Origin: Ostreococcus lucimarinus
Lineage: Eukaryota
Strand: one strand, 5' to 3'
Assembly (NCBI GenBank): GCA_000092065.1
Contig: CP000588.1
Length of the DNA stretch: 64,000 bases
A program made the translations under genes and the position numbers. The notes below the pieces were generated by a model. The model was not told the DNA's origin and did no database searches. It was given only the letters and a program-made list of their open reading frames with translations. Shown in pieces: positions 987 through 15,953 of the stretch; positions within the stretch are counted from its first letter, which is position 1, and each line of letters starts with the position of its first letter.

Positions 987-2084
987 CTACAACTTTTCGC
1001 ACACGCGCAGCTTCGCGCTCCGACTTCGCACGTTGACGTCGATCTCGGCGCTCGTCGGCACTTTGGGCTTACGCGTGATCAATTTCACGATTTTCGGCGG
1101 CGCCTCGGGTTGAGGCATGTATCGATTCACCTCCTCGCTCGGCGGTTCCGCGCGTCCCGCGAAGTGGCGAAACCGCCTCTTCACGATGGAATCCTCCAAA
1201 CTGTGAAACGATATGATGGCTAAACGTCCGCCCGGTCGCAGCGCCTCGATCGCGGCCGGAATGACGTCTTCGACGGCGCCCAACTCATCGTTCACCGCGA
1301 TTCGTATGCCTTGAAACGTGCGCGTGGCGGGATGAATCGACCCCCACTTCCCCGGCACGTTGCCGATGGCGTCCACGAGCTCGCGCGTCGTCCTAATCTC
1401 CTTCTCCGCCCGTCTCTCGCATATCCGTCTCGCCAACAATCGCCAGTGTTTTTCCTCGCCGTATTCGCGCAAAATCCTACCGATCTCTTCCTCCGGCCAC
1501 GCGTTGACGATTTCCTCCGCCGTCGTCGTCGCGCTCTCCCCCATGCGCATGTCCAGCGGTCCATCGTTCATGAACGAAAACCCACGCTCGGCGCGATCGA
1601 GGTGCATCGAGCTCACCCCGAGATCTAACACGACGCTGTCCACCCCGTCGACGTCGAGCGCTCTGAGCGCCTCGCGCATCCGTCTAAAATTCGCCTCCAC
1701 CAGACTCAACCGCAGCGTCGTCGTCGCCTCGTCGCCTCGCGTCGCCGCCCTCGCCCGCTCCAGCCTCGGCCTCGCCAGCGCGTGCGCCGACGCGTCGACG
1801 TCGAACCCGACGAAGTGTTCCATCTCCTCGTGCGCCTCGATCATCGCTCGCGCGTGTCCACCCGCGCCCAGCGTCCCGTCCACGTGCGTTCGCGCGCGCA
1901 CGTCCCTGAACGCCTCCAGCACCTCGTCCATCATCACGCTCGCGTGCGGCGCCCCCTCGTCGCGCGTCGTCGTCGCGCGTCGTCGCGCCGTCGGTTTCGC
2001 CGCGCCGAAGCGGCGGCGCGCGAAATCATCGCGTCGCGCGGCGCGCGCCGACGCGCGCGCGACGCGCGCGCCGCGCGGAAGCAT
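987..2084 (-). CDS. RsmH/MraW-family 16S rRNA m4C methyltransferase, probably organelle-targeted
   Basis: The tail of the minus-strand ORF reads VDGTLGAGGHARAMIE..FVGFDVD..VLDLGVSSMHLD..RGFSFMNDGPLDMRM..LAIISFHSLEDSIVKRRF, which are RsmH signature blocks. An ATG at 2084-2082 gives an Arg/Ala-rich presequence of about 50 aa; an alternative ATG lies at 1934. The upstream ~700 codons of track ORF 987..4016 are Arg-rich antisense read-through of the WD40 gene and are not coding. Confidence 0.8.
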   Translation of the reverse strand: MLPRGARVARASARAARRDDFARRRFGAAKPTARRRATTTRDEGAPHASVMMDEVLEAFRDVRARTHVDGTLGAGGHARAMIEAHEEMEHFVGFDVDASAHALARPRLERARAATRGDEATTTLRLSLVEANFRRMREALRALDVDGVDSVVLDLGVSSMHLDRAERGFSFMNDGPLDMRMGESATTTAEEIVNAWPEEEIGRILREYGEEKHWRLLARRICERRAEKEIRTTRELVDAIGNVPGKWGSIHPATRTFQGIRIAVNDELGAVEDVIPAAIEALRPGGRLAIISFHSLEDSIVKRRFRHFAGRAEPPSEEVNRYMPQPEAPPKIVKLITRKPKVPTSAEIDVNVRSRSAKLRVCEKL

Positions 2085-2249
2085 CGAAATCGCGCGCGCG
2101 CGTCGTCCTCTCTCGACGCGTCCGCGACGCGTCGCCGCGATCGTCGCGTCGCGGTCGCGAGTGCGGCGTCGACGTCGACGGATGGCCGGCCGCCGCACTC
2201 CGCGTCGCCCGGCGACGCGCGACGATCGCGGCGACGCGTCGAACGAGCG

Positions 2250-3878
2250 ATGCCGAGACCGCGTCGCGACGCGGCGCGCGCGATCCTGCGCGACGTCGAC
2301 GCGAACGCGACGACGAGCGACGCGGCGAGGGACGATTCGAAAGCGCCGAGCGGCGACGCGATGAAGACCGAGGCGGTGACGCGCGACGACGACGACGCGC
2401 GCGCGAACGACGATGGATCGAACGATGGACTCACGGCGTTCGAACGCGCGCGAGAGGCGCACATCGCGCGGAATAAGGCGAGGATGGAGGCGTTGAACAT
2501 CAACGCGCTGAGCGCGGGCGTCGGCGCGGCGTCTCGCGGGAGCGCGGCGTCGTCGCGAGGGATCACGGGGAAGCGAAATCGGGATAAAGCGAGCGCGCCG
2601 AGCGTGCCGACGCGACGGTCGAGCCGGGCGAGGAAGATCGCGCCGGAGTTGGCGAGCGGGGTGGATCGAGAGCGGCGCGACGGGACGGTGGTGCTCGCGA
2701 ACGGGGCGACGTATCATCCGAGCGGCGAACTCACGGCGGCGCCGACGAGGACGCGACCGAGCGGTGAGGTGGCGATGCGGAGTGAAAACGGGAGCGAGAA
2801 GACGGACGCGGCGTTCATCGAGGAGTTGAAGACGAAGATGGGGGCGCACGTCGGCGAGACGAAGGAGGCGAAGGAGGCGACGGCGAGCGTGCGAGAGATG
2901 ATCAAGAATAAGCTCACGCTGCGCGACGTGGACGTCGCGAAGTGCGTGCCCAAGGGTGTGACGCACTTGGACTTTTCCCCCGACGAGTCCATGCTTCTCG
3001 TGGCGTCGGGAGATAAGGAGGGACACATCGGTTTGTGGCGCGTCGATAAGACGACGTCGGAGGAGGAGGACGAGGACGACGGGGTGTTGTACTATAAAGC
3101 CCACGGGTCGTACATCTCGCACTGCAAATGGGGCCGCGGCGCCTTGCGAGGGAAGCTCTTCACGTGCGCGTACGACGGCGCGGTTCGCGTCCTCGATCCG
3201 CAAACCGGTTCGTTTCAGGAAACCGTCTACTCCGAGGAGGACGAATTCTCGGCGTGCGACCAATTCGCCGACGGCAACACCGCATTGGTGTGCGATAACG
3301 TCGGTAACTTGCATCAACTGGATCTGCGCGTGGGTAAATTCACGTCCCCGAGCCTGTCGATTCACGAGAAGAAGATCAACACCGTGCACATCGATCCCGG
3401 CAACGAGCACCGATTCGCCACTTCCACGAATCAGCTCGTCAGCGTCTGGGACGCGCGAAAGTTGAAAAAGAACGCCAAGTCCACGCACGATCTGGTCCAT
3501 CGAAAATCGTCCCAAGCGGCGTATTGGTGTCCCGACGGCTCCGGCGCGCTCCTCACGACGTGTTACGACGACGCCCTCCGCGTCTGGCACCCCGACCGAT
3601 CCGCCGCCGCGCCCACCGCCACCATCAAGCACAACAATCAAACCGGTCGTTGGGTCCTTCCCTTCCGCGCCGTCTGGTCCGCCGCCGGCGACGGCGTCTT
3701 GTGCGGTTCCATGACGCGTCAAGTCGAAATTTTCAACCCCGCCACCGGCGCGTCGCTCGCGCGTTACGCCTCTCCCGACCACATGACCGCCATCGCCAGT
3801 CGTCTGGCGTGTCATCGCTCGCTCAATTACGTCGCCGCCGGCACCGCGAGCGGTCGCGTGCACGTGTACCGCGCGTGA
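2250..3878 (+). CDS. WD40-repeat protein (WDR76/CMR1-like candidate)
   Basis: The C-terminal 350 aa show WD-repeat signatures (VTHLDFSPDESMLLVASGDKEGHIGLWRV; CAYDGAVRVLD; QLVSVWDARK; DDALRVWHP; GRVHVYRA). An acidic/Arg-rich N-terminal region precedes them. In-frame ATG at 2250 (alternative 2361); stop at 3878. Confidence 0.65.
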   Translation: MPRPRRDAARAILRDVDANATTSDAARDDSKAPSGDAMKTEAVTRDDDDARANDDGSNDGLTAFERAREAHIARNKARMEALNINALSAGVGAASRGSAASSRGITGKRNRDKASAPSVPTRRSSRARKIAPELASGVDRERRDGTVVLANGATYHPSGELTAAPTRTRPSGEVAMRSENGSEKTDAAFIEELKTKMGAHVGETKEAKEATASVREMIKNKLTLRDVDVAKCVPKGVTHLDFSPDESMLLVASGDKEGHIGLWRVDKTTSEEEDEDDGVLYYKAHGSYISHCKWGRGALRGKLFTCAYDGAVRVLDPQTGSFQETVYSEEDEFSACDQFADGNTALVCDNVGNLHQLDLRVGKFTSPSLSIHEKKINTVHIDPGNEHRFATSTNQLVSVWDARKLKKNAKSTHDLVHRKSSQAAYWCPDGSGALLTTCYDDALRVWHPDRSAAAPTATIKHNNQTGRWVLPFRAVWSAAGDGVLCGSMTRQVEIFNPATGASLARYASPDHMTAIASRLACHRSLNYVAAGTASGRVHVYRA

Positions 3879-4027
3879 GCGACTCGACGCGCGCTTCGCG
3901 CCTTCATTTAATCCACCTTCGCACTGTTTGCCATAGAGGCCCCCGTCGCGCGCTTTTTTTCCATGCCAAACCTCCACGCCAAACCTCGCCGCGCCGCAGC
4001 GCGCGTCCCCGCACACGCGCGCGCGCG

Positions 4028-5188
4028 ATGCGCACCGCGCCGACGATCGCGTCCGCGTCCGCCGCCGTCGCGCCGACGCGCGCGGCGCGACGCGCGAGCG
4101 CGCGACGGGACGCGAACGCGCGCGCGACGGCGCGACGGCGCGACGCGACGAGTCGCGCGCGACGCGACGCGACGACGCGCGCGATGCCGCGCGCGCAGGG
4201 CCCGATGCGAGGGCAACACCCGGTCGCGCCGCACGGCCCGCGATTTCACGAGTACGGCGGGTTCGACATCGATCCCGAGCTGCAGCACAGTCGAGTGTCG
4301 TACCTGCGCGAACGCGTCGAGGCGGTGACGAAGGAGTTCCCGAACGCGATCGGCATGGACGATTTCCTGTTCCGAACGGAGGTGATGCTGCGACGATTCG
4401 GGTTCACGACGGATAATTCCATCGCGCTGACGAGCCTGTGTCGGGACGAGATCACGTTTCCGCTGAAGAACGCCATCGACGACATTTTCGGATATTCGAT
4501 GGATTTGGACGGGTTGGGAGGGATCATCTCCGCGGGGACCACGGGGTTGGGGGCGGGATTGAGTCACTCGCCCACCGATCACTTGACCGGGAAGGAGCGG
4601 TACGTGCTGTTCGCCATGCCGCACATCGCGATCGACGCGGAAGGGCGCGTGGGGAGCATCGTGCGCGCGGGGCGTCGGGGACAGTCGTGCGCGTGCGGGG
4701 CGCTCGTGAAGATGCAACCGATGTTCAAGCAGTACAAAGAGGGCACGCTGGAGATGGGTTTGGACGAGGGCGGACACGACCCGCTCGATCCGGAGTTCTC
4801 CATCCTCACCAGGCGCTTGATCACCGCGGTGAACAAGGATGAAATCCCTGACAAAGGCTTGCCCCTCTCCGACGTCACGCGTCTCGCCGACCGCGTCATC
4901 CGTCGCGATCTCGACAAGCTCATCGGCGAGACCGTGGACGTGACCAAATCTGATTACGCCGTCGTCACCGGGATCCAAATCCACAGCACCGCCGCGAACA
5001 ACCGCACGTGGCATCCAGCCTTAGAATTTATCTCGCCGACGTCGATGTACGTCGTCAAGGACGGCGTTCGTCACGACATGGACGTCCTCGCCATCGATCC
5101 ACCGACGCCGCGGCAGCTGTTCCACATCGCCGGCGGCGAAGAGATCGCGGAGCTTCCATCGCCGAGGCGCTCTTGGCCCGGGCTCTGA
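4028..5188 (+). CDS. LCIB/LCIC-like (beta-carbonic-anhydrase-fold) protein candidate with chloroplast-type presequence
   Basis: ATG at 4028 opens an Ala/Arg/Ser/Thr-rich presequence (MRTAPTIASASAAVAPTRAARR..). The mature part carries a Cys ..61 aa.. His ..22-24 aa.. Cys-x-Cys arrangement (SLCRDE ... FAMPHIAIDAEG ... GQSCACGAL). Its spacing resembles the Zn-ligand spacing reported for LCIB-family proteins. The family assignment is from memory only. Confidence 0.4.
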   Translation: MRTAPTIASASAAVAPTRAARRASARRDANARATARRRDATSRARRDATTRAMPRAQGPMRGQHPVAPHGPRFHEYGGFDIDPELQHSRVSYLRERVEAVTKEFPNAIGMDDFLFRTEVMLRRFGFTTDNSIALTSLCRDEITFPLKNAIDDIFGYSMDLDGLGGIISAGTTGLGAGLSHSPTDHLTGKERYVLFAMPHIAIDAEGRVGSIVRAGRRGQSCACGALVKMQPMFKQYKEGTLEMGLDEGGHDPLDPEFSILTRRLITAVNKDEIPDKGLPLSDVTRLADRVIRRDLDKLIGETVDVTKSDYAVVTGIQIHSTAANNRTWHPALEFISPTSMYVVKDGVRHDMDVLAIDPPTPRQLFHIAGGEEIAELPSPRRSWPGL

Positions 5189-5286: not shown

Positions 5287-5291
5287 ATGCG

Positions 5292-5325
<34 letters not shown>

Positions 5326-6630
5326 GCGTCGCCGTCGTCGTCGACGCCGACCGGCGCGAGCGCGCTGCACGAGCGCCACATCGGATCGACGCGAACGCTC
5401 GCGGCGAAGCGCTACGCCGGCATCGTCCCCGGCGGCGTCGCCACGCGCATCGGACGCGAGCGCGAGAGCGCGCGAGACCGCGCGCTGAACTCTCGCGCCG
5501 AGGCGCTGCGAAAAGCGCTGCGAAATCGGACGGAGACGGCGACCGAGGGCGGGGACGCGCGCGCGACGGCGCGGTTGTACGAATACGCGAGCGTGCTGCA
5601 GGAACAAGCCGAACGATGCGAGAACCGAGGCGACGACGGCGCGCTGCGCGAGGAATTAACGCTCCGGGCGTGCGAAGCGTACGGTAGGGCGGCGGAGATG
5701 GACGGAGAGCGACACGGGGTGCTGTATAACTGGGGCATCGCGTTGGGCGACCGCGCGGAGCGAGCGACGACGCGAGGCGACGGAGACGCGGCGAGGAAAC
5801 TGTGGGACGAGGCGATAGATAAGTACGAAAGAGCGTCGAGAACGACGGCGAGCGGGACGGTGTCGACGCAGCAGGCGACGCAAGGGTTGAATAATCTCGG
5901 TTTGGCGTATCAGAGTCGCGCGGCGTGCGTGGATTTCGAACGCGCGGCGAAGAGTTTGGAGGCGACGCAGAGGGCTCGAGAGGAGCGCGTGCGGTCGCTC
6001 AGCGCGGGTGTGCGCAAGTTTCGACGCGCGCTCAGACTCGATCCGAGTTTCGATCGCGCGGCGTATAATTTAGGCACCGCCGTGTACGCGCTGAGCGTCG
6101 AGTACGCGTCGATGGCGCGCTTGTACCCGCAAGACGCGTCGCTCGCACCGTTGTCCAAGGACTACGCCGTCGCCGCCGCCATTTACGTCGGCTTAGCGCT
6201 CGCCAACGAGCCGCACAACGACGTCTACGCCACCTCCCACGGCATCGTCAAGCACTTCGTCCCGTCGCCGCGCGTCTTCGACGAGCGCTTCCTCTTCGCC
6301 TCCGACGACGCCCCTCCCGACGACGTCCTCGACGTCCGTCTCGTCCTCGACGCCCACTCCCTCCGCGCGTATTCCGACGCCGATCCCTCCGTCCCCGTCC
6401 TGGACGTCCCCCTCGCCGCGATCGCGTCCTTCGAGCCCGTCGAGGACGCGTCGCTCGCGTCGGGCGTCGCCCGCGCCCTCCTCGGCGTCGTCGATCCCGA
6501 CGTCCCCCAGCGCCTCTTCGCGTGTCCCAATCCCCGCGTTCGCGACAGGGTCATCGACGCCGTCGTTCTCGCGCGAGATTTAGCGCGCCGCCGACGCGAG
6601 GCCGACGTTCGCGCCGCCTTCGCGTCGTGA
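5287..6630 (+). CDS. TPR-like repeat protein, function unknown
   Basis: ATG verified at 5287; starts with a (DA)n tract encoded by (gccgac)5. Repeated helical hairpin motifs YNWGIALGDRAE / LNNLGLAYQSRA / YNLGTAVYALS indicate TPR-like repeats. Confidence 0.5.
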
Positions 6631-7766: not shown

Positions 7767-10700
7767 TCACTTGGCGACGAGCGCCTGCATTTGTTCGATG
7801 CGAGATCGAACGACGGCGAGTTGCTCTTGCAACTCGCTCAACTCCTTCTGCGCTTTTTCTACGACCGCCGCGGGGGCTTTGTCGACGAACGCGGGCGAGT
7901 TGACGCGATCAGCCAGCCCATCGATTTCCTTTTGCATCTTTGTCTCTTGCTTCGTGAGGCGGGCGATTTCTTTAACCGGATCCGCGAGACCCGCGAGCGG
8001 CAAGTACACCTCCAGGCTTTCGTTGACGATGATTTGAACGAAATTCTCCGGCGCGCTCGCGACTTCGGTGGGTGGCGCGCTCGCGACGGACGTTTGCTCG
8101 GCGTCTAAACGCGCGAGCGTGGCGATAAGATTCAACTCGGCGCTGTACGCCGCGTTCGCTTCGGCATCCGTCGCTACGATGACGGCGGGAATACGCTTCG
8201 CCGGCTCCACCGAGTACTCGGCGCGCGCGTTGCGAATACGCGTGACGATCGATTGTAAGTTTTCAAACGTCGACACTGCGGATTTGTCCACGTAAGCTTC
8301 AAGCGCGGGCCAGTCTTGGCCTATCAACGCCTCGCCGCGATGCGGAAGCGCTTGCCAAACTTCCTCCGTCACGTACGGCACGAATGGGTGGAGCAATCGA
8401 AGCGTTTGATCCAAAACGTACAGCGTCACCGCTTTGGTGACTCGCGCGGCGTCGGCATCGTCTCCGTACGTGCGACTTTTAGCGCCTTCAATGAACCAAT
8501 CGGCAAAGGAGTCGTAGAAGAACGTGTACGTCGATCTACCAGCCTCACCAAAGTCGTACTTGTCTTGCGCGGCGGTGACGTGATCCACCGTCGCGTTCAA
8601 TTTGCTCACGATCCAACGCTCGGCGAGCGGAAGCTCGGCAATTGACGCTTCATCGGCGCAAAGCGCAGCACCTTCGTCGACGAGCGCCATGCGCTCATCG
8701 TCTGTCATGTCCTCCATACTATACAGCACAAACTTACCGGCGTTCCAAATCTTGTTGGTGAAGTTTCTGTTCGACGCCAAACGTTCGAGGTTCAAGTTCA
8801 AGTCTTGACCGGGCGTGGTGCCGGTGGCGAGCGTGAATCGTAAAGCGTCGCAGCCTTGCTCAGCGATGACGCCTAACGGATCCACGACGTTACCAAGCGA
8901 TTTGCTCATTTTGCGACCTTGCGAATCGCGGACGAGGCCGTGGAGAAAGACAGTGTGGAAGGGTAATTTCCCCGTCATCCCGTACGACATCATGATCATA
9001 CGCGCCACCCAAAAGAATAAAATATCGTGCCCAGTCTCAAGCACGCTCGCCGGAAAGAAATTTTTCATGTCAGGAGCTTCTTCGTTGGGCCACCCACACG
9101 TGCTGAACGGCCACAGACCAGAAGAAAACCAAGTGTCGAGCACGTCTTCTTCACGGTACAACACGACGTTTTCGCCGTATTGCGCCTTCGCTTTTTCTGC
9201 GGCGTCGGCGTCATTTCGCGCCACTACGTATCGCTTATTCGTGCCTTTACCTTCCCCCTCTCTCGCACGCGCGAGATCTTCTTCAGAATCGTGCACGTAC
9301 CACACTGGGATTTGATGACCCCACCACAGCTGTCTCGAGATGCACCAATCTCGGATATCCGTCAACCAAGACTTGTAAATTTTCTCAAAACGCTGCGGGA
9401 TGATGGTGAGTTCGCCAGTCTCCACAGCCTTCAGCGAGGGCTCCGCCATGGTTTCCATCTTACAGAACCATTGCTCAGAAACAATTGGTTCGATGATTTC
9501 GCCACCCCGCTGCGAGCGAGGCACGCGGTTCGTATACGGCTCCGCCTTGATTGCTAAACCTTCCGCCTCCATATCCGCCCAGAGTTGCTTTCGGCAATCC
9601 GCGCGATCGATGCCGGCATACTTGCCGCAGTTAGAGTTCATGGAACCATCTTTGTTCATAATATTGATCAAATCCAAGCCCACACGCTTGCCGATTTCGT
9701 AATCATTCGGGTCGTGTCCCGGCGTGATCTTCAACGCCCCCGTGCCGAATTCCATGTCCACGTACGAGTCGCCGATGATGGGCACGGTGCGACCGTTGGT
9801 GAAGGGCACGACGCATCTCTTCCCGATCATGTGCTTGAAGCGATCGTCTTCTGGGTTGACCGCGACTGCAGTGTCACCAAGAATCGTTTCCGGACGCGTC
9901 GTTGCCACCGGAAGGTAGTCGTCCGCGCCGCCGCCCTCGACCGGGTACTTGAAAAAGTACAACGTCCCCGGCTCTTCGGTGTACTCGACCTCCAAGTCAC
10001 TCACCGCGGTTTGCAACTTCGGCGCCCAGTTCACCATGTAGGTTCCTTTATAAATGAGACCGCGATCGTGCAGCGTGATGAATGCCTCGAGCACGCTCTC
10101 AGATAACCCCTCGTCGAGCGTAAATCTCTCGCGAGACCAATCGCAAGACGCCCCCAACCTCTTAATCTGCTGCTGAATCCGTCCCCCATACTCGGCCTTC
10201 CACTCCCACACTCGCTCCACGAACTCATCGCGCGTCATATCCGTTCGTTTCACTCCCTCGCTCTCTAACTTTCTCTCCACGACCAATTGCGTGGCGATGC
10301 CCGCGTGGTCCGTCCCCGGCAGCCACAGCGTCTTGCGACCACGCATTCGCGCGCTTCGAGTCATCACGTCCTGCAGCGTCACGAACATCGCGTGTCCCAT
10401 GTGCAGCGCTCCCGTGACATTCGGTGGCGGCATCGGGATCACGAACGGCGGTCCCGTGGCCGTCTCATCGTTCGGGGCAAAGTATCCGCGCGACTCCCAC
10501 CACTCGTACAGGTTTTCCTCCACGTTTTGGTGCTCAAAGTTCTTCGGCAGGTCTCCGTGTCGTTTTCCGGGCTTGGGCATAGTTTTCATCGTCGCGCACG
10601 ACGGATACGACGTCGTCGCGCGCGTTCGCACCGCGATTCGCGCCCCGCACGTCCGCGCAGACGGTATCGTCGGCGCATTTCTGTCCGTCACTGGGGTGGC

Positions 10701-10817
10701 CAGTGCGAGCTTTCTATTCGACGCCGCGCTCGCGAGCACGCGTCCGTACGCGTGAGGACACGCGCGTGGGTGCCTTGCGAGCGTGACGCGCGCGAGCGTG
10801 CGAAGGCCGCTCGCCAT
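7767..10817 (-). CDS. valyl-tRNA synthetase, bacterial/organellar type with N-terminal presequence
   Basis: Class-I aaRS HIGH motif as HMGH (PNVTGALHMGHAMF), KMSKS motif (GRKMSKSLGNVVDP) and ValRS editing/anticodon blocks. C-terminal coiled coil (..LSELQEQLAVVRSRIEQMQALVAK) is typical of bacterial-type ValRS. ATG verified at 10817 gives a ~75-aa presequence (MASGLRTLARVTLARHPRA..); alternative start MKTMPKPGK at 10589. Confidence 0.9.
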   Translation of the reverse strand: MASGLRTLARVTLARHPRACPHAYGRVLASAASNRKLALATPVTDRNAPTIPSARTCGARIAVRTRATTSYPSCATMKTMPKPGKRHGDLPKNFEHQNVEENLYEWWESRGYFAPNDETATGPPFVIPMPPPNVTGALHMGHAMFVTLQDVMTRSARMRGRKTLWLPGTDHAGIATQLVVERKLESEGVKRTDMTRDEFVERVWEWKAEYGGRIQQQIKRLGASCDWSRERFTLDEGLSESVLEAFITLHDRGLIYKGTYMVNWAPKLQTAVSDLEVEYTEEPGTLYFFKYPVEGGGADDYLPVATTRPETILGDTAVAVNPEDDRFKHMIGKRCVVPFTNGRTVPIIGDSYVDMEFGTGALKITPGHDPNDYEIGKRVGLDLINIMNKDGSMNSNCGKYAGIDRADCRKQLWADMEAEGLAIKAEPYTNRVPRSQRGGEIIEPIVSEQWFCKMETMAEPSLKAVETGELTIIPQRFEKIYKSWLTDIRDWCISRQLWWGHQIPVWYVHDSEEDLARAREGEGKGTNKRYVVARNDADAAEKAKAQYGENVVLYREEDVLDTWFSSGLWPFSTCGWPNEEAPDMKNFFPASVLETGHDILFFWVARMIMMSYGMTGKLPFHTVFLHGLVRDSQGRKMSKSLGNVVDPLGVIAEQGCDALRFTLATGTTPGQDLNLNLERLASNRNFTNKIWNAGKFVLYSMEDMTDDERMALVDEGAALCADEASIAELPLAERWIVSKLNATVDHVTAAQDKYDFGEAGRSTYTFFYDSFADWFIEGAKSRTYGDDADAARVTKAVTLYVLDQTLRLLHPFVPYVTEEVWQALPHRGEALIGQDWPALEAYVDKSAVSTFENLQSIVTRIRNARAEYSVEPAKRIPAVIVATDAEANAAYSAELNLIATLARLDAEQTSVASAPPTEVASAPENFVQIIVNESLEVYLPLAGLADPVKEIARLTKQETKMQKEIDGLADRVNSPAFVDKAPAAVVEKAQKELSELQEQLAVVRSRIEQMQALVAK

Positions 10818-10952
10818 GACGACGAGGACGCGCGCCGGTGTGTGGGGGACGCCGACGCGGGCGGGACTGAGGTTTTCGGAGCGTTCGGCGAGCGTCTGAT
10901 GAAATGTCGGTGAATGAATCATCGCAAAGGGTAAAAGTACTCGGTGACTCTT

Positions 10953-11867
10953 TTAATCGTCGTCTTCGTATTCGTACGCCGCTTCGGTCCACGCCGACGG
11001 GACGGATTCGATGTCGACGGCGCCGACGGCGTCGACTGGGTCGTCGGAAGACTGAATCGAGGTCTTCTCTTCGGCGGTGAGCGGCGGTTGGCCGTATCGC
11101 TTGCGAAGCGCGTCCGTGGCCGAGATCAATGCTGATACCTGTTCGCCGTCGAACTCGTCGTCGCCGTCGAACGGGAGCAAGACGTGATCGATCGAGTGCA
11201 AAATGGCCCCGCACGCGCGAATATCCGCTTCGACGATTCGCGCGTCGGACCCGAGTCCTGAGATTACCACACCGTTCGCCTTCTGTTCGACCACGTACAG
11301 CGGCATGACGTTGTTGAGATAATCTTCGAGAAAGCGATCGTCGCCACGAAGTTGTTCGAGCTGTGACATCGTGTACGTGGCGTTTGGCACGGCGTGGTAC
11401 GCCAAAAGGTAGGCTCTCATCAATCGCGTGGAGCCAAACGCGTCCACGAGATCGCGCCGCGCAGCTTCCCAATCTTCCCAAGCTCGCAGCTTCTCGATCG
11501 CATCGTTCGTCGGACAGAACAAGGTGAAAACTCTCGTGGGGTCTTGCAGCTTGTCCTTGATTCTCGGCAGCGTGTCTATGACTTGTTTCAATTCCGACAG
11601 TTCAGGTCGACGCGCGATTTGATCGTACGCGACGACGCAGTGACCATCTTCACGCAACACGGGCGCAACCTCTGTCGCGTCGTTACTGTCGTAACTTTCG
11701 AGTAACTTTCGACCGATACCAACGCGATCGGCGGCGCGAGGTCCGATCCCACGTCCAGAGATTCGGCGTCCACCGACGGCGCGTCCTCGGTACCGCGCGT
11801 CGACGCGCAGCGCCAGGAGAGAAAACAAAGCGACGAGGAAGCCGCGCAGATGAGACGCGCGCGTCAT
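10953..11867 (-). CDS. secreted fasciclin (FAS1)-domain protein
   Basis: Signal-peptide-like N-terminus MTRASHLRGFLVALFSLLALRVDA from ATG 11867. FAS1 hallmarks TLFCPTNDAIEKL and NGVVISGLGSDARIVEADIRACGAILHSIDHVLLP; acidic C-terminal tail. Confidence 0.6.
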   Translation of the reverse strand: MTRASHLRGFLVALFSLLALRVDARYRGRAVGGRRISGRGIGPRAADRVGIGRKLLESYDSNDATEVAPVLREDGHCVVAYDQIARRPELSELKQVIDTLPRIKDKLQDPTRVFTLFCPTNDAIEKLRAWEDWEAARRDLVDAFGSTRLMRAYLLAYHAVPNATYTMSQLEQLRGDDRFLEDYLNNVMPLYVVEQKANGVVISGLGSDARIVEADIRACGAILHSIDHVLLPFDGDDEFDGEQVSALISATDALRKRYGQPPLTAEEKTSIQSSDDPVDAVGAVDIESVPSAWTEAAYEYEDDD

Positions 11868-11904
11868 GAGTGCGTGAGAGTGCGTGAGAGTGCGTGAGAG
11901 TGCG
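11868..11904. repeat. 10-bp tandem repeat (gagtgcgtga) x3.7 immediately upstream of the fasciclin gene ATG
   Basis: Direct reading of 11868-11904: gagtgcgtga gagtgcgtga gagtgcgtga gagtgcg. Confidence 0.8.
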
Positions 11905-12148
11905 AAAACGTCACTTTCGTGTGGTTCGATCGTTGTCACGAACGTCGTCGCGCGCGCGAGTGTGGTCCCCAGCGAGTTCCTCGTTCTCGTTCTCGTTCTC
12001 GGTCTCTGTCTCGGCGCGATGATGGTTGGTTGGCAGCGCAAAAGAATTTATTGAACAAAAGTGATCCTAAGAATCGCTTGATGACGTGTTGCGAAGAAGG
12101 AGAAGTCGTTAAATACTTGTATACAGCAGCAGCAGCGGCAGCTCATGA

Positions 12149-13225: not shown

Positions 13226-13717
13226 CTGTTCGTTCGTTCGCGCGTCGTTCGCGCGTCGTCAGTCATCGCGGCTCGCGTTCGAATCGTTTCGATTCGATTA
13301 ATCTTTCGGATAGCGTCCGCGTCGTCGCGCGTCTCGCCTCGCGCGCGCGCGGCGTCGCACCTCGAGCCCGCTCGGGAACCCCGGGCGCGTGTGTCGAAGG
13401 TAATCCATCGCCGACGCCGAGTTTCCCCGGTTTCGAGCGCTCGCGGACGGCATCGCGCGCGTCGCGTCGCGCCGCGTCGCGCTCTCGCGCGCGTCGCGCC
13501 GCGCGCGCGCGCCGTCGCGGTTTTTTATCGTCTCCATCGCCGCATTCAGGGCGCTCGGTGCCCCATCGAGGACGATGCAAACATCGGACATACGGGTATG
13601 CGTTATGTGTGAGACGGAATCTTCGATCGAGACGTGCCGACAGACGTGCCGACAGACGGTTGCGGCGTTCGGCGACGCGTTCGGCGTCGACGCGACGCGG
13701 TCGACGCGGCGTCGCGC

Positions 13718-14917
13718 ATGGACCGCCGACGGGAGCGTCGATCGATCGACCGCGCGTCGTCGCGCGATCGCGAGGCGCTCGAACTGAAGCGCAAGCTCGA
13801 GGCGTCGGCGGCGAATTTGGCGCGACTCGTCCGACGCAAGGAGGCGCTCGCGCGCGCGGTCGCGACGCCGTCGACGCCGGACGCGGGCGGGGTCTCGAGC
13901 GCGTCGATGACGAATGACGAGACGCGCGAGGTGACGCCGGACGACGAGGACGTGGACGCGGTCGAGCGAGGGGAGGGATTTCTGTCCAAGACGATGCAAA
14001 AGTTTTTGCAGAGGCAGTGCGTGCCGGCGGCGAAGAAGATGGCGATTTCGCCGGCGAAGGCGGCGAAGGCGGCGAAGGCGGCGAAGGCGAAGGCTGGACG
14101 AGGACGATTGCCCGTCCGGGAGTACGCGCCGAAAGTGGCGACGATGGCGAAGAGACTCGGGGATGAGGTCGGGAAGAAGTCGGCGGCGAGGGAGAAGAAG
14201 CGCAAGCTGAACGACGAGCAACTCGCGGAGTGCTACACCGTCATGCACGCGGCGGTCGATGCGGGTGATCTCGAGCGATGCGAAGAGTTGCGCAAATACT
14301 TCGTGAGACACGAGGGAAAGTTCTCCAACCCGTACAAATGGGATCACGAGCTCGTCGCGTGCTGCTCGCGAGACGGACGCCGACCGATCGCAACGCTCGC
14401 GTGGGCCTTCAGCAAAGGCGCGCGACGCGACGCCAAAGCCGCATTTTTCGCGTGCGAACGCGTCGATCACGAGTTACGTCGAGATGAAGACGGCAACTAC
14501 ACCGATTCTTTGACCGTTTTACAGTTCTTACACGAGCACGGCGTGCGCATCGATTACGACACCATGTACTGCGCGTGCGAGTTCGGCAATCTCGCCTGCC
14601 TCGAGTGGATGCACCAAAACATTCGCGGGCTCAGATTCGCCGATTGGCCCACGTCCAAAAATCCTCAAGGTCAAGACAACGATTTGATGCTCATCGCCGC
14701 CAAAAACGGCCACTTACCCGTGCTCCAGTACCTCTACGACAACGACTGCGATTTCACCGACGCCGACGCGCGAGACGCGATCGAACAAGTCATGAACCGC
14801 GAACCGTCCTCGCCTTTGGGCTGGCACGCCGTCGTGCGATGGATACAGAACACCGACGAATACAAAGCGTACCGCTCGGTCGACGAAGACGACCCGCTCG
14901 CCGCGCGCGCGAACTAG
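13718..14917 (+). CDS. ankyrin-repeat-like protein with N-terminal coiled coil and (AAK)n tract
   Basis: The track ORF 13634 starts at GTG; first in-frame ATG at 13718 (MDRRRERR..). C-terminal half has ankyrin-like hairpins (LMLIAAKNGHLPVLQYLYDN; LQFLHEHGVRIDYDTMYCACEFGNLACLEWM). Confidence 0.45.
   Translation: MDRRRERRSIDRASSRDREALELKRKLEASAANLARLVRRKEALARAVATPSTPDAGGVSSASMTNDETREVTPDDEDVDAVERGEGFLSKTMQKFLQRQCVPAAKKMAISPAKAAKAAKAAKAKAGRGRLPVREYAPKVATMAKRLGDEVGKKSAAREKKRKLNDEQLAECYTVMHAAVDAGDLERCEELRKYFVRHEGKFSNPYKWDHELVACCSRDGRRPIATLAWAFSKGARRDAKAAFFACERVDHELRRDEDGNYTDSLTVLQFLHEHGVRIDYDTMYCACEFGNLACLEWMHQNIRGLRFADWPTSKNPQGQDNDLMLIAAKNGHLPVLQYLYDNDCDFTDADARDAIEQVMNREPSSPLGWHAVVRWIQNTDEYKAYRSVDEDDPLAARAN
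14051..14095 (+). repeat. 12-bp coding tandem repeat (gcggcgaaggcg)n encoding (AAK)n
   Basis: ggcgaaggcggcgaaggcggcgaaggcggcgaaggcgaaggc read directly; lies inside the ankyrin-like CDS. Confidence 0.7.
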
Positions 14918-15077: not shown

Positions 15078-15953
15078 ATGCGCGCGACGGCGTCGACGAC
15101 GACGCGCGCGCACGGCGCGAGTCATCGTCCGCGTCGTCGCCGCGCGCTCGAGCGCGCGGCGACGACGCGAACGCTCCGAGCGCTCCGCGAGCCCGACGTG
15201 AACGACGCGGTGGACGAGATCGCGAGCGACGACGCGAACGACGACGCGAACGAGCGATTGGACGCGTTTCTGCGACGAAAGGGGCGACACGCGTCGTTCA
15301 GCGCGACGAAGATTGCGTCGCGGCGCGTGCATCAGGCGCCCGAGGCGCGAGCGGTTCGAGCGTACATGTCGCTGCCGGCGTCGCAGTACAGCACGCTGGA
15401 CGGAGAGTCGGTCGAACGCGTGAGCGATGATACGTTCAAGGTGGAACTGAGCGAGTTGGCGTTTTTGGGGTTGTCGTTACGGCCGAGATTGAAGGCGAAG
15501 GTGCGAGTGCGAGACGACGGGAGCGGGTGCGAGGTGCGCGTGGAGGATATGGAGTTGACGGGGAGCGGAGTAGTGGAATACGCGAGCGATGCGTTTGAGA
15601 TTGTGAGTGTGAACAACGTCACGTGGTGCGACGTCGAAAGCGAGGCGTTGAGCGCGGAGGAACGCGCGGTGGTGGAGTCGCGGGGCGGGGAGTATAAGGA
15701 GTTGACGAGCGAGACGAGCGTGCGGGTGTACATCATCGTACCGGGGTGGTTTCCGTTCACGATCAAGTCCACCGAGCGCACGGGGCGGTTCGTGGTGAAC
15801 CAGGTCGTCGCGCAGGTGGTGCCGAGATTTTTAAATCAGCTCGCGGAGGATTACGGGACGTGGTCGCGCGGCGACGATTCGCGAACGGCGAGCGCGAAAG
15901 GGATGTTTGATTGCGACGTCGACGACTCCGCGCAGGAGTGCGAGGCGGTGTAA
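15078..15953 (+). CDS. hypothetical protein with organelle-type presequence (conserved-looking C-terminal domain, family not recognised)
   Basis: ATG verified at 15078; Thr/Arg/Ala-rich N-terminus then a non-repetitive domain (..VRVYIIVPGWFPFTIKSTERTGRFVVNQVVAQVVPRFLNQLAEDYGTW..). Stop at 15953 followed by TGTAA at 15971. Confidence 0.45.
   Translation: MRATASTTTRAHGASHRPRRRRALERAATTRTLRALREPDVNDAVDEIASDDANDDANERLDAFLRRKGRHASFSATKIASRRVHQAPEARAVRAYMSLPASQYSTLDGESVERVSDDTFKVELSELAFLGLSLRPRLKAKVRVRDDGSGCEVRVEDMELTGSGVVEYASDAFEIVSVNNVTWCDVESEALSAEERAVVESRGGEYKELTSETSVRVYIIVPGWFPFTIKSTERTGRFVVNQVVAQVVPRFLNQLAEDYGTWSRGDDSRTASAKGMFDCDVDDSAQECEAV

Follow-up and report, generated by a model that had tools for sequence, protein, structure and literature searches.

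We analyzed a 64,000-nucleotide stretch of Ostreococcus lucimarinus DNA (contig CP000588.1 of GenBank assembly GCA_000092065.1), the whole of which is referred to below as the window, and found that positions 4028-5188 are, judging from their sequence, an intact, intron-free nuclear gene for an LCIB-type (theta/beta-like) carbonic anhydrase (CA) of O. lucimarinus or a very close clade-A strain. The identity of the product as an LCIB-family protein is secure. The reading that best explains the whole of our observations, to which we assign a probability of about 80%, is that the protein would be a theta-class CA with a beta-CA fold that is imported into the chloroplast and hydrates stromal CO2 as a component of the CO2-concentrating mechanism (CCM), a function deduced from sequence and from analogy with characterized relatives. 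The gene and its conserved domain are as follows.

4028-5188, plus strand: complete, single-exon LCIB-family coding sequence of 386 codons plus TGA, based on open reading frame (ORF) translation, Pfam and PDB matches, GC content at third codon positions (GC3) and the ratio of non-synonymous to synonymous substitution rates (dN/dS)
4346-5059, plus strand: predicted LCIB_C_CA (beta-carbonic-anhydrase-like) domain, residues 107-344, based on a full Pfam profile match, a predicted local distance difference test score (pLDDT) mostly above 85 and the Foldseek match to 5k5w_B

An earlier note on this DNA had proposed membership of the LCIB family from a Cys/His pattern, and this proposal was borne out by each comparison that we made. 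First, a search with hmmscan against Pfam matched a single family, PF18599 (LCIB_C_CA; full name 'Limiting CO2-inducible proteins B/C beta carbonic anhydrases'), with an E-value of 1.3e-70 and 237.6 bits (gathering cut-off, 25 bits). The match extended over residues 107-344 and over profile positions 1-223 of 223, and the same domain was present in all homologues collected (97/97). Second, a phmmer search against all PDB chains returned Chlamydomonas LCIC (5b5x) at the top (E=2.1e-72) and Chlamydomonas LCIB (5k5w) in second place (E=1.1e-69), followed by Phaeodactylum PtLCIB4 and other structures of LCIB_C_CA domains (E about 1e-17); similarity to precisely these Chlamydomonas and Phaeodactylum proteins was the check that the earlier note had suggested. 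With E-values of 1.3e-70 in Pfam and 2e-72 in PDB, the Cys/His arrangement is therefore not a chance motif. The family has been classed by reviews as beta-type or theta-type CA (PMC5876011, PMC7215798), and an O. lucimarinus LCIB, which is most probably the product of the gene described here, has already been placed in the LCIB phylogeny of Li et al. 2020, Nat Plants, Fig. 5 (PMC8075897).

The predicted structure pointed in the same direction. An AlphaFold2 model built on an alignment of 40 homologues had a mean pLDDT of 75.9, with values below 50 for residues 1-80 and mostly above 85 in the core. When this model was searched against PDB with Foldseek, the best match was Chlamydomonas LCIB (CrLCIB; 5k5w_B) with an E-value of 4.8e-25, a target-normalised template modelling (TM) score of 0.89 and a root-mean-square deviation of 2.6 A over approximately residues 85-375 of the model, followed by CrLCIC, PtLCIB4 and 6kfs. 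The classical beta-CAs came next (Cryptococcus Can2 2w3n, pea 1ekj, M. tuberculosis Rv3588c 2a5v and CcaA; E about 1e-3, TM about 0.4). Thus, the mature domain (approximately residues 85-375) is predicted to adopt the LCIB fold, and this ranking of fold matches suggests an LCIB-type member of the beta-CA fold. The likeness to classical beta-CAs (PF00484) consists of this distant fold relationship (Foldseek probability 0.97-1.0), zinc coordination by Cys/His/Cys and an Asp two residues past the first Cys. However, their ligand motif is C-x-D-x-R ... H-x-x-C with a His-to-Cys spacing of 3, whereas His and Cys are 24 residues apart in the Ostreococcus protein. As there was no match to PF00484 at E<=1 in the hmmscan search against Pfam and no H-x-x-C motif, the protein should not be regarded as a classical beta-CA.

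The predicted zinc site and active site occupy the following positions.

4439-4447, plus strand: codons of C138 (predicted zinc ligand 1), R139 and D140 (the Asp of C-x-D, predicted to be catalytic), matched in the alignment to LCRDE in CrLCIB/LCIC and to C46-(S47R)-D48 in PtLCIB4
4502-4573, plus strand: Gly-rich loop and SHSP motif, residues 159-182 including H180, identified by residues invariant in the alignment
4622-4624, plus strand: codon of H199 (predicted zinc ligand 2), matched in the alignment to PHIA in CrLCIB/LCIC and to H102 in PtLCIB4
4664-4666, plus strand: codon of R213, equivalent to CrLCIB Arg194
4688-4696, plus strand: codons of C221, A222 and C223, the last being predicted zinc ligand 3 (H199+24)

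Cysteine occurs only three times in the protein (C138, C221 and C223). H199 lies 61 residues after C138, and C221 and C223 follow it at distances of 22 and 24, which is exactly the Cys...His...Cys-x-Cys pattern with spacings of 61 and 22-24 residues that had been noticed from the letters. We examined the conservation of these residues in 40 aligned homologues ranging from Mamiellophyceae to Chlamydomonadales and Trebouxiophyceae, together with one Pavlova sequence. H180, H199, R213 and C223 were each found in 40/40 sequences, and C138, R139, D140 and E141 in all 38 homologues that cover this region, the other two being visibly truncated gene models. The triad C138, H199 and C223 was therefore present in every complete homologue and aligned with the zinc-site motifs of the LCIB structures. 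On the other hand, C221 was kept in 38 of the 40 sequences and replaced by Ala or Thr in the other two. Since C223 is invariant and C221 is not, C223 would be the zinc ligand of the Cys-x-Cys pair, and the proposal that this pair forms part of the zinc site would hold for its second Cys and not for its first.

Alignment with characterized proteins extended this picture to the remaining active-site residues. The segments SLCRDEIT, MPHIAID and SCACGAL align with NLCRDEVT, FPHIAIN and SCACGAL of both Chlamydomonas proteins. In addition, H180 and R213 align with residues 162 and 194 of C. incerta LCIB, a protein exactly as long as CrLCIB (448 residues); in CrLCIB, important active-site roles have been assigned to His162 and Arg194 (PMC5876011). 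The Gly-rich loop that had also been pointed out corresponds to residues 159-177 (DLDGLGGIISAGTTGLGAG; 8 Gly in 19 residues) and indeed holds invariant family residues, those of the loop region being G173, A176, G177, S179, H180 and P182. For PtLCIB4, a chain-to-residue offset of 13 was set by the names of the deposited mutants S47R and H88A; at this offset, C138, H199 and C223 correspond to C46, H102 and C126, the last being the second Cys of the PtLCIB4 'CC', and H180 corresponds to H88. We take C46, H102 and C126 to be the zinc ligands of PtLCIB4, their numbering having been cross-checked against the two mutant names. Thus, the mature domain has every residue expected of the zinc site and the active site (C138, H199, C223, D140, H180 and R213).

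Among characterized proteins, CrLCIB and CrLCIC are the closest relatives, with approximately 40-45% identity over about 280 residues. At the zinc site, they share LCRDE, PHIAI and SCACGAL residue for residue with the Ostreococcus protein, in which the equivalents of His162 and Arg194 are kept; the model shows the same fold (TM 0.89-0.90), and an N-terminal presequence is present in both. The Ostreococcus protein has a three-residue insertion after CxC and a motif of its own before the domain:

4232-4288, plus strand: clade-specific motif HGPRFHEYGGFDIDPELQH (residues 69-87), lying after the presequence and ahead of the catalytic domain, identified by alignment

This motif was kept in all eight Ostreococcus-, Bathycoccus- and Micromonas-like sequences and was absent from the LCIBs of core chlorophytes; its residues 69-80 have a pLDDT below 50, and the earliest modelled helix begins at residue 83. 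The protein also lacks the C-terminal tail of approximately 100 residues found in chlorophycean and trebouxiophycean LCIBs, including CrLCIB, and, like all Mamiellophyceae orthologues, ends 23 residues past the conserved P-R-Q. Such a tail is not a defining feature of PF18599, and diatom members are also without it. The C-terminus reads ...PRRSWPGL (5162-5185), and a conserved terminal Trp(-Pro) is seen in Mamiellophyceae LCIBs, which MAFFT aligns with W-P-x-W-Q near the end of the long-tailed Chlamydomonas and Chlorella LCIBs. This apparent W-P match may reflect a contact residue preserved at the terminus, or it may be an artefact of the alignment. Finally, Chlamydomonas has an LCIC partner, whereas tblastn found no LCIC-like partner in the 64-kb window; a search for a second LCIB copy in the window gave only low-complexity, presequence-like matches (E>0.4), and no clearly paralogous Ostreococcus cluster was seen among the homologue matches.

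The Phaeodactylum members PtLCIB3, PtLCIB4 and theta-CA Pt43233 (5b5y, 5b5z, 5b60 and 6kfs) share the fold, the Cys-His-Cys site and the His-to-Cys spacing of 24, but have only approximately 22-24% identity to the Ostreococcus protein in structural alignment. PtLCIB4 has C-S-D-E and 'CC' where the Ostreococcus protein has C-R-D-E and 'CxC'. These diatom members have been reported to be constitutively active CAs (PMC9614477), and Pt43233 has been reported in the thylakoid lumen, not in the stroma (PMC7215798).

Orthologues in sister species have 79-81% overall identity and the same gene order; comparison with two of them gave a dN/dS (Nei-Gojobori) of 0.10 across residues 70-386, compared with 0.73-0.83 across residues 1-69. 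The mature part is therefore under strong purifying selection and the presequence evolves near-neutrally. Within the species, 14 contigs showed 1-3 synonymous and 0-1 non-synonymous codon differences over the last 347 codons.

Based on these results and on what is known of the family, we propose the following mechanism. The N-terminal residues (approximately 60) would import the protein into the chloroplast, where zinc held by C138, H199 and C223 would activate water and D140, H180 and R213 would, by homology, make up the rest of the active site. In the stroma, alkaline in the light, the zinc-bound hydroxide would hydrate CO2 to HCO3-, and CO2 diffusing in, or leaking from the fixation site, would be trapped as poorly permeant bicarbonate. 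The protein would thereby serve the passive CO2-uptake/recapture limb of the algal CCM, as described for LCIB/LCIC in Chlamydomonas, which current models place in the stroma: there, the high light-driven pH drives CO2 to HCO3-, to which the envelope is poorly permeable (PMC9614477, PMC10473226). In view of the single copy in the window and the missing long C-terminal tail of Chlamydomonas LCIB, the protein probably acts as a homo-oligomer and not as an LCIB/LCIC hetero-complex.

Several points weigh against this proposal. To our knowledge, Ostreococcus is generally described as having no pyrenoid; a literature search for this absence found only descriptions of Micromonas and Mantoniella, both with pyrenoids. 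The peri-pyrenoid recapture part of the Chlamydomonas model would therefore not be literally applicable. In addition, the composition of the presequence does not separate chloroplast from mitochondrial targeting, and the absence of a paralogue applies to the 64-kb window. Finally, the recombinant Chlamydomonas proteins are inactive as CA in vitro, unlike PtLCIB3 and PtLCIB4 (PMC9614477, PMC5876011), and they and the Ostreococcus protein both have Arg next to the first zinc Cys (C-R-D-E), whereas the active PtLCIB4 has Ser.

The inactivity of the recombinant Chlamydomonas proteins and the shared C-R-D-E motif also speak for the best surviving alternative, that the protein is a genuine LCIB homologue with a structural or regulatory rather than an enzymatic role, such as the CO2-leak barrier or scaffold once proposed for Chlamydomonas LCIB-LCIC. 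CA activity of recombinant CrLCIB/LCIC was not measurable, and a structural-barrier role was put forward (PMC5876011, PMC9614477); the deposited S47R mutant of PtLCIB4 (5b60) shows that the position after the first Cys was probed by its authors. However, we consider this explanation unlikely. The strict conservation of all zinc ligands and active-site residues and the dN/dS of 0.10 would be difficult to account for if the protein were not catalytic. Moreover, Ostreococcus has, as is generally held, no pyrenoid to wall off. Current CCM models also treat LCIB as a stromal CA (PMC9614477, PMC10473226).

The compartment in which a catalytic protein would act depends on the N-terminal region, whose features are listed here together with the sequence upstream.

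4028-4207, plus strand: presequence, residues 1 to about 60, a putative organellar (chloroplast) transit peptide, based on composition, pLDDT below 50 and dN/dS of 0.73-0.83
4073-4147, plus strand: 25-codon segment PTRAARRASARRDANARATARRRDA, residues 16-40, missing from a 361-residue allele, based on repeat arrays found with Tandem Repeats Finder (TRF) and on contig ORFs
3879-4027, plus strand: intergenic/5' region of 149 nt, characterized with TRF, a sister-species upstream alignment and an allele survey

Residues 1-60 are rich in Ala (32%), Arg (25%), Thr (12%) and Ser (7%), with three Asp and no Glu, and carry a net charge of +12, compared with -10 for the rest of the protein. All Mamiellophyceae orthologues bear non-conserved N-terminal extensions of 60-80 residues. 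Composition, predicted disorder, near-neutral evolution and these extensions all fit a putative organellar transit peptide. The chloroplast-type presequence claimed earlier is thus consistent with all four lines of evidence, and its chloroplast destination stays putative.

The presequence was also polymorphic in length. Alleles of 361 and 386 residues differ by 75 nt in frame, and both were uninterrupted ORFs on many marine metagenome contigs. The window carries the 386-residue allele, while the form recorded at NCBI has 361 residues and an identical mature part. The PTRAARRASARRDANARATARRRDA segment that accounts for the difference lies inside a CG-rich tandem-repeat tract at 4074-4196 (TRF), and the repeats make its exact boundaries ambiguous. 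The only difference between the window and the commonest metagenome allele was at codon 34 (4127-4129), with Thr34 in the former and Pro34 in the latter.

In the 5' region, TRF detected 2.2 copies of a 13-nt direct repeat, TCCACGCCAAACC, at 3960-3987. A 7-nt indel (CATGCCA) segregates in this repeat, approximately 60 nt upstream of ATG 4028. In the window, the insertion gives rise to an upstream ATG at 3963 that is not in the LCIB frame and begins an ORF of 121 codons running across the start of LCIB. Half of the same-species contigs (7/14) had no upstream ATG at all. The 75-nt and 7-nt indels were found in all four combinations, which suggests recombination. That the only indel seen within the presequence preserves the frame and the one just upstream of ATG 4028 does not lends weak support to a translation start at 4028. 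Closer to the gene, an element CCGCACACGCGCGCGCG at 4005-4021, beginning 23 nt upstream of the start codon, was conserved in similar form in three Ostreococcus-like species (the window and contigs L015 and L018), while the remaining intergenic sequence had diverged; it may be a core promoter, 5'-untranslated-region or translation-initiation element.

These observations bear on a second alternative, namely that the protein is an active LCIB-type CA of another compartment: the mitochondrion, the cytosol (with translation starting at M53 or M60) or, like Pt43233, the thylakoid lumen. The Ala/Arg-rich presequences of green algae resemble mitochondrial ones, in-frame Met 53 and Met 60 precede the conserved part, and the theta-CA of Phaeodactylum is lumenal (PMC7215798). 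However, the closest characterized relatives, CrLCIB/LCIC, are stromal (PMC9614477, PMC10473226), the presequence shows no hydrophobic segment for lumen targeting past its basic region, the N-terminal extension has been kept in all orthologues, and the contrast between the two indels suggests translation from 4028. We therefore regard this alternative as improbable, and somewhat more so than a non-enzymatic role, and favor import of an active CA into the chloroplast stroma.

The coding nature of the locus was clear. The ORF runs uninterrupted from ATG 4028 to the stop codon at 5186-5188 on the plus strand, and ATG 4028 is the earliest in-frame ATG downstream of an in-frame stop at 3335; 149 nt separate it from the gene for a WD40 protein, the stop codon of which is at 3878. 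The GC contents at codon positions 1, 2 and 3 were 0.64, 0.50 and 0.84 in the LCIB frame (0.612 for the window as a whole). An antisense ORF at 3908-5014 on the minus strand had the mirrored pattern (0.82 at position 1 and 0.64 at position 3) and is therefore a shadow ORF of a GC-rich gene. Another minus-strand ORF, at 987-4016 (1009 residues), is a very long spurious frame crossing several real genes and was likewise dismissed as a shadow ORF by its codon-position GC. A plus-strand frame at 3524-5188, starting at TTG, is a spurious in-frame extension of the LCIB ORF. Very long spurious ORFs are typical for a genome with 61-68% GC. As expected for a eukaryotic nuclear gene, a scan for bacterial-type promoters and terminators found nothing meaningful. 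Near-identical copies of the gene were present on dozens of marine metagenome contigs, and database entries label the protein or its homologues 'hypothetical protein' or 'predicted protein'. A pseudogene, or a chance Cys/His pattern in one of the many long spurious ORFs that GC-rich genomes yield, of which several overlap this locus, can be dismissed given the E-values of about 1e-70 in both Pfam and PDB sequence searches, the full-length domain match free of frameshifts and stops, the GC3 of 0.84 in the LCIB frame only, the dN/dS of 0.10 and the metagenomic copies.

The surroundings of the gene were conserved in the sister species, with the order ERGIC/thioredoxin protein, tubulin, RsmH methyltransferase, WD40, LCIB, TPR-like protein, valyl-tRNA synthetase (ValRS) and fasciclin. 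The following neighbors were identified in the window.

987-2084, minus strand: RsmH/MraW methyltransferase
about 2250-3878, plus strand: WD40-repeat protein
5287-6630, plus strand: 447-residue protein with only a marginal TPR_11 match
7767-10922, minus strand: ValRS of organellar type
10953-12041, minus strand: fasciclin-domain protein
13634-14917, plus strand: ankyrin-repeat protein
15078-15953, plus strand: DUF1997 protein

The ValRS has 99% identity to a predicted protein of O. lucimarinus CCE9901, which, together with the GC content of the window, places the DNA in O. lucimarinus or a strain very close to it in clade A. Land-plant homologues among the matches of the ValRS were annotated 'chloroplastic/mitochondrial'. 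No CCM-related gene was evident among the neighbors identified in the window, and gene adjacency in a eukaryote carries no functional weight. The tubulin gene upstream was called as two pieces of 66-69 and 415-417 residues on metagenome contigs L001 (953-2499) and L018 (680-2213), a split that implies a short intron close to the 5' end of the tubulin gene, in contrast to the intron-free LCIB gene.

The assignment of this gene to the LCIB family is correct but already known, since the family has been defined by PDB structures of 2016 and in Pfam, and an O. lucimarinus LCIB has appeared in a published phylogeny (PMC8075897). Within this published family the gene is unexceptional, no new kind of system has been discovered, and the value of the result is annotational: the 'hypothetical protein' can be renamed an LCIB-family (theta/beta-like) carbonic anhydrase with all predicted catalytic residues intact. 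A more tentative idea, which we consider rather doubtful at present, is that this is a 'minimal' LCIB, that is, a constitutively active stromal CA without the tail that is encoded by a single gene copy, forms homo-oligomers and would drive passive CO2 uptake in a cell that has no pyrenoid, and that the presequence and upstream-ATG alleles could tune the amount of enzyme in the chloroplast. If this were true, CCM engineering could make use of a compact LCIB free of regulation, and there would be evidence that LCIB function needs no pyrenoid. With regard to the organism, our results suggest that this picoalga, which is abundant worldwide and has no described pyrenoid, has retained the part of the green-algal CCM that captures CO2 in the stroma, in a shorter version that appears to be present as one copy. 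This bears on how minimal a biophysical CCM can be and on the choice of LCIB variants for crop engineering.

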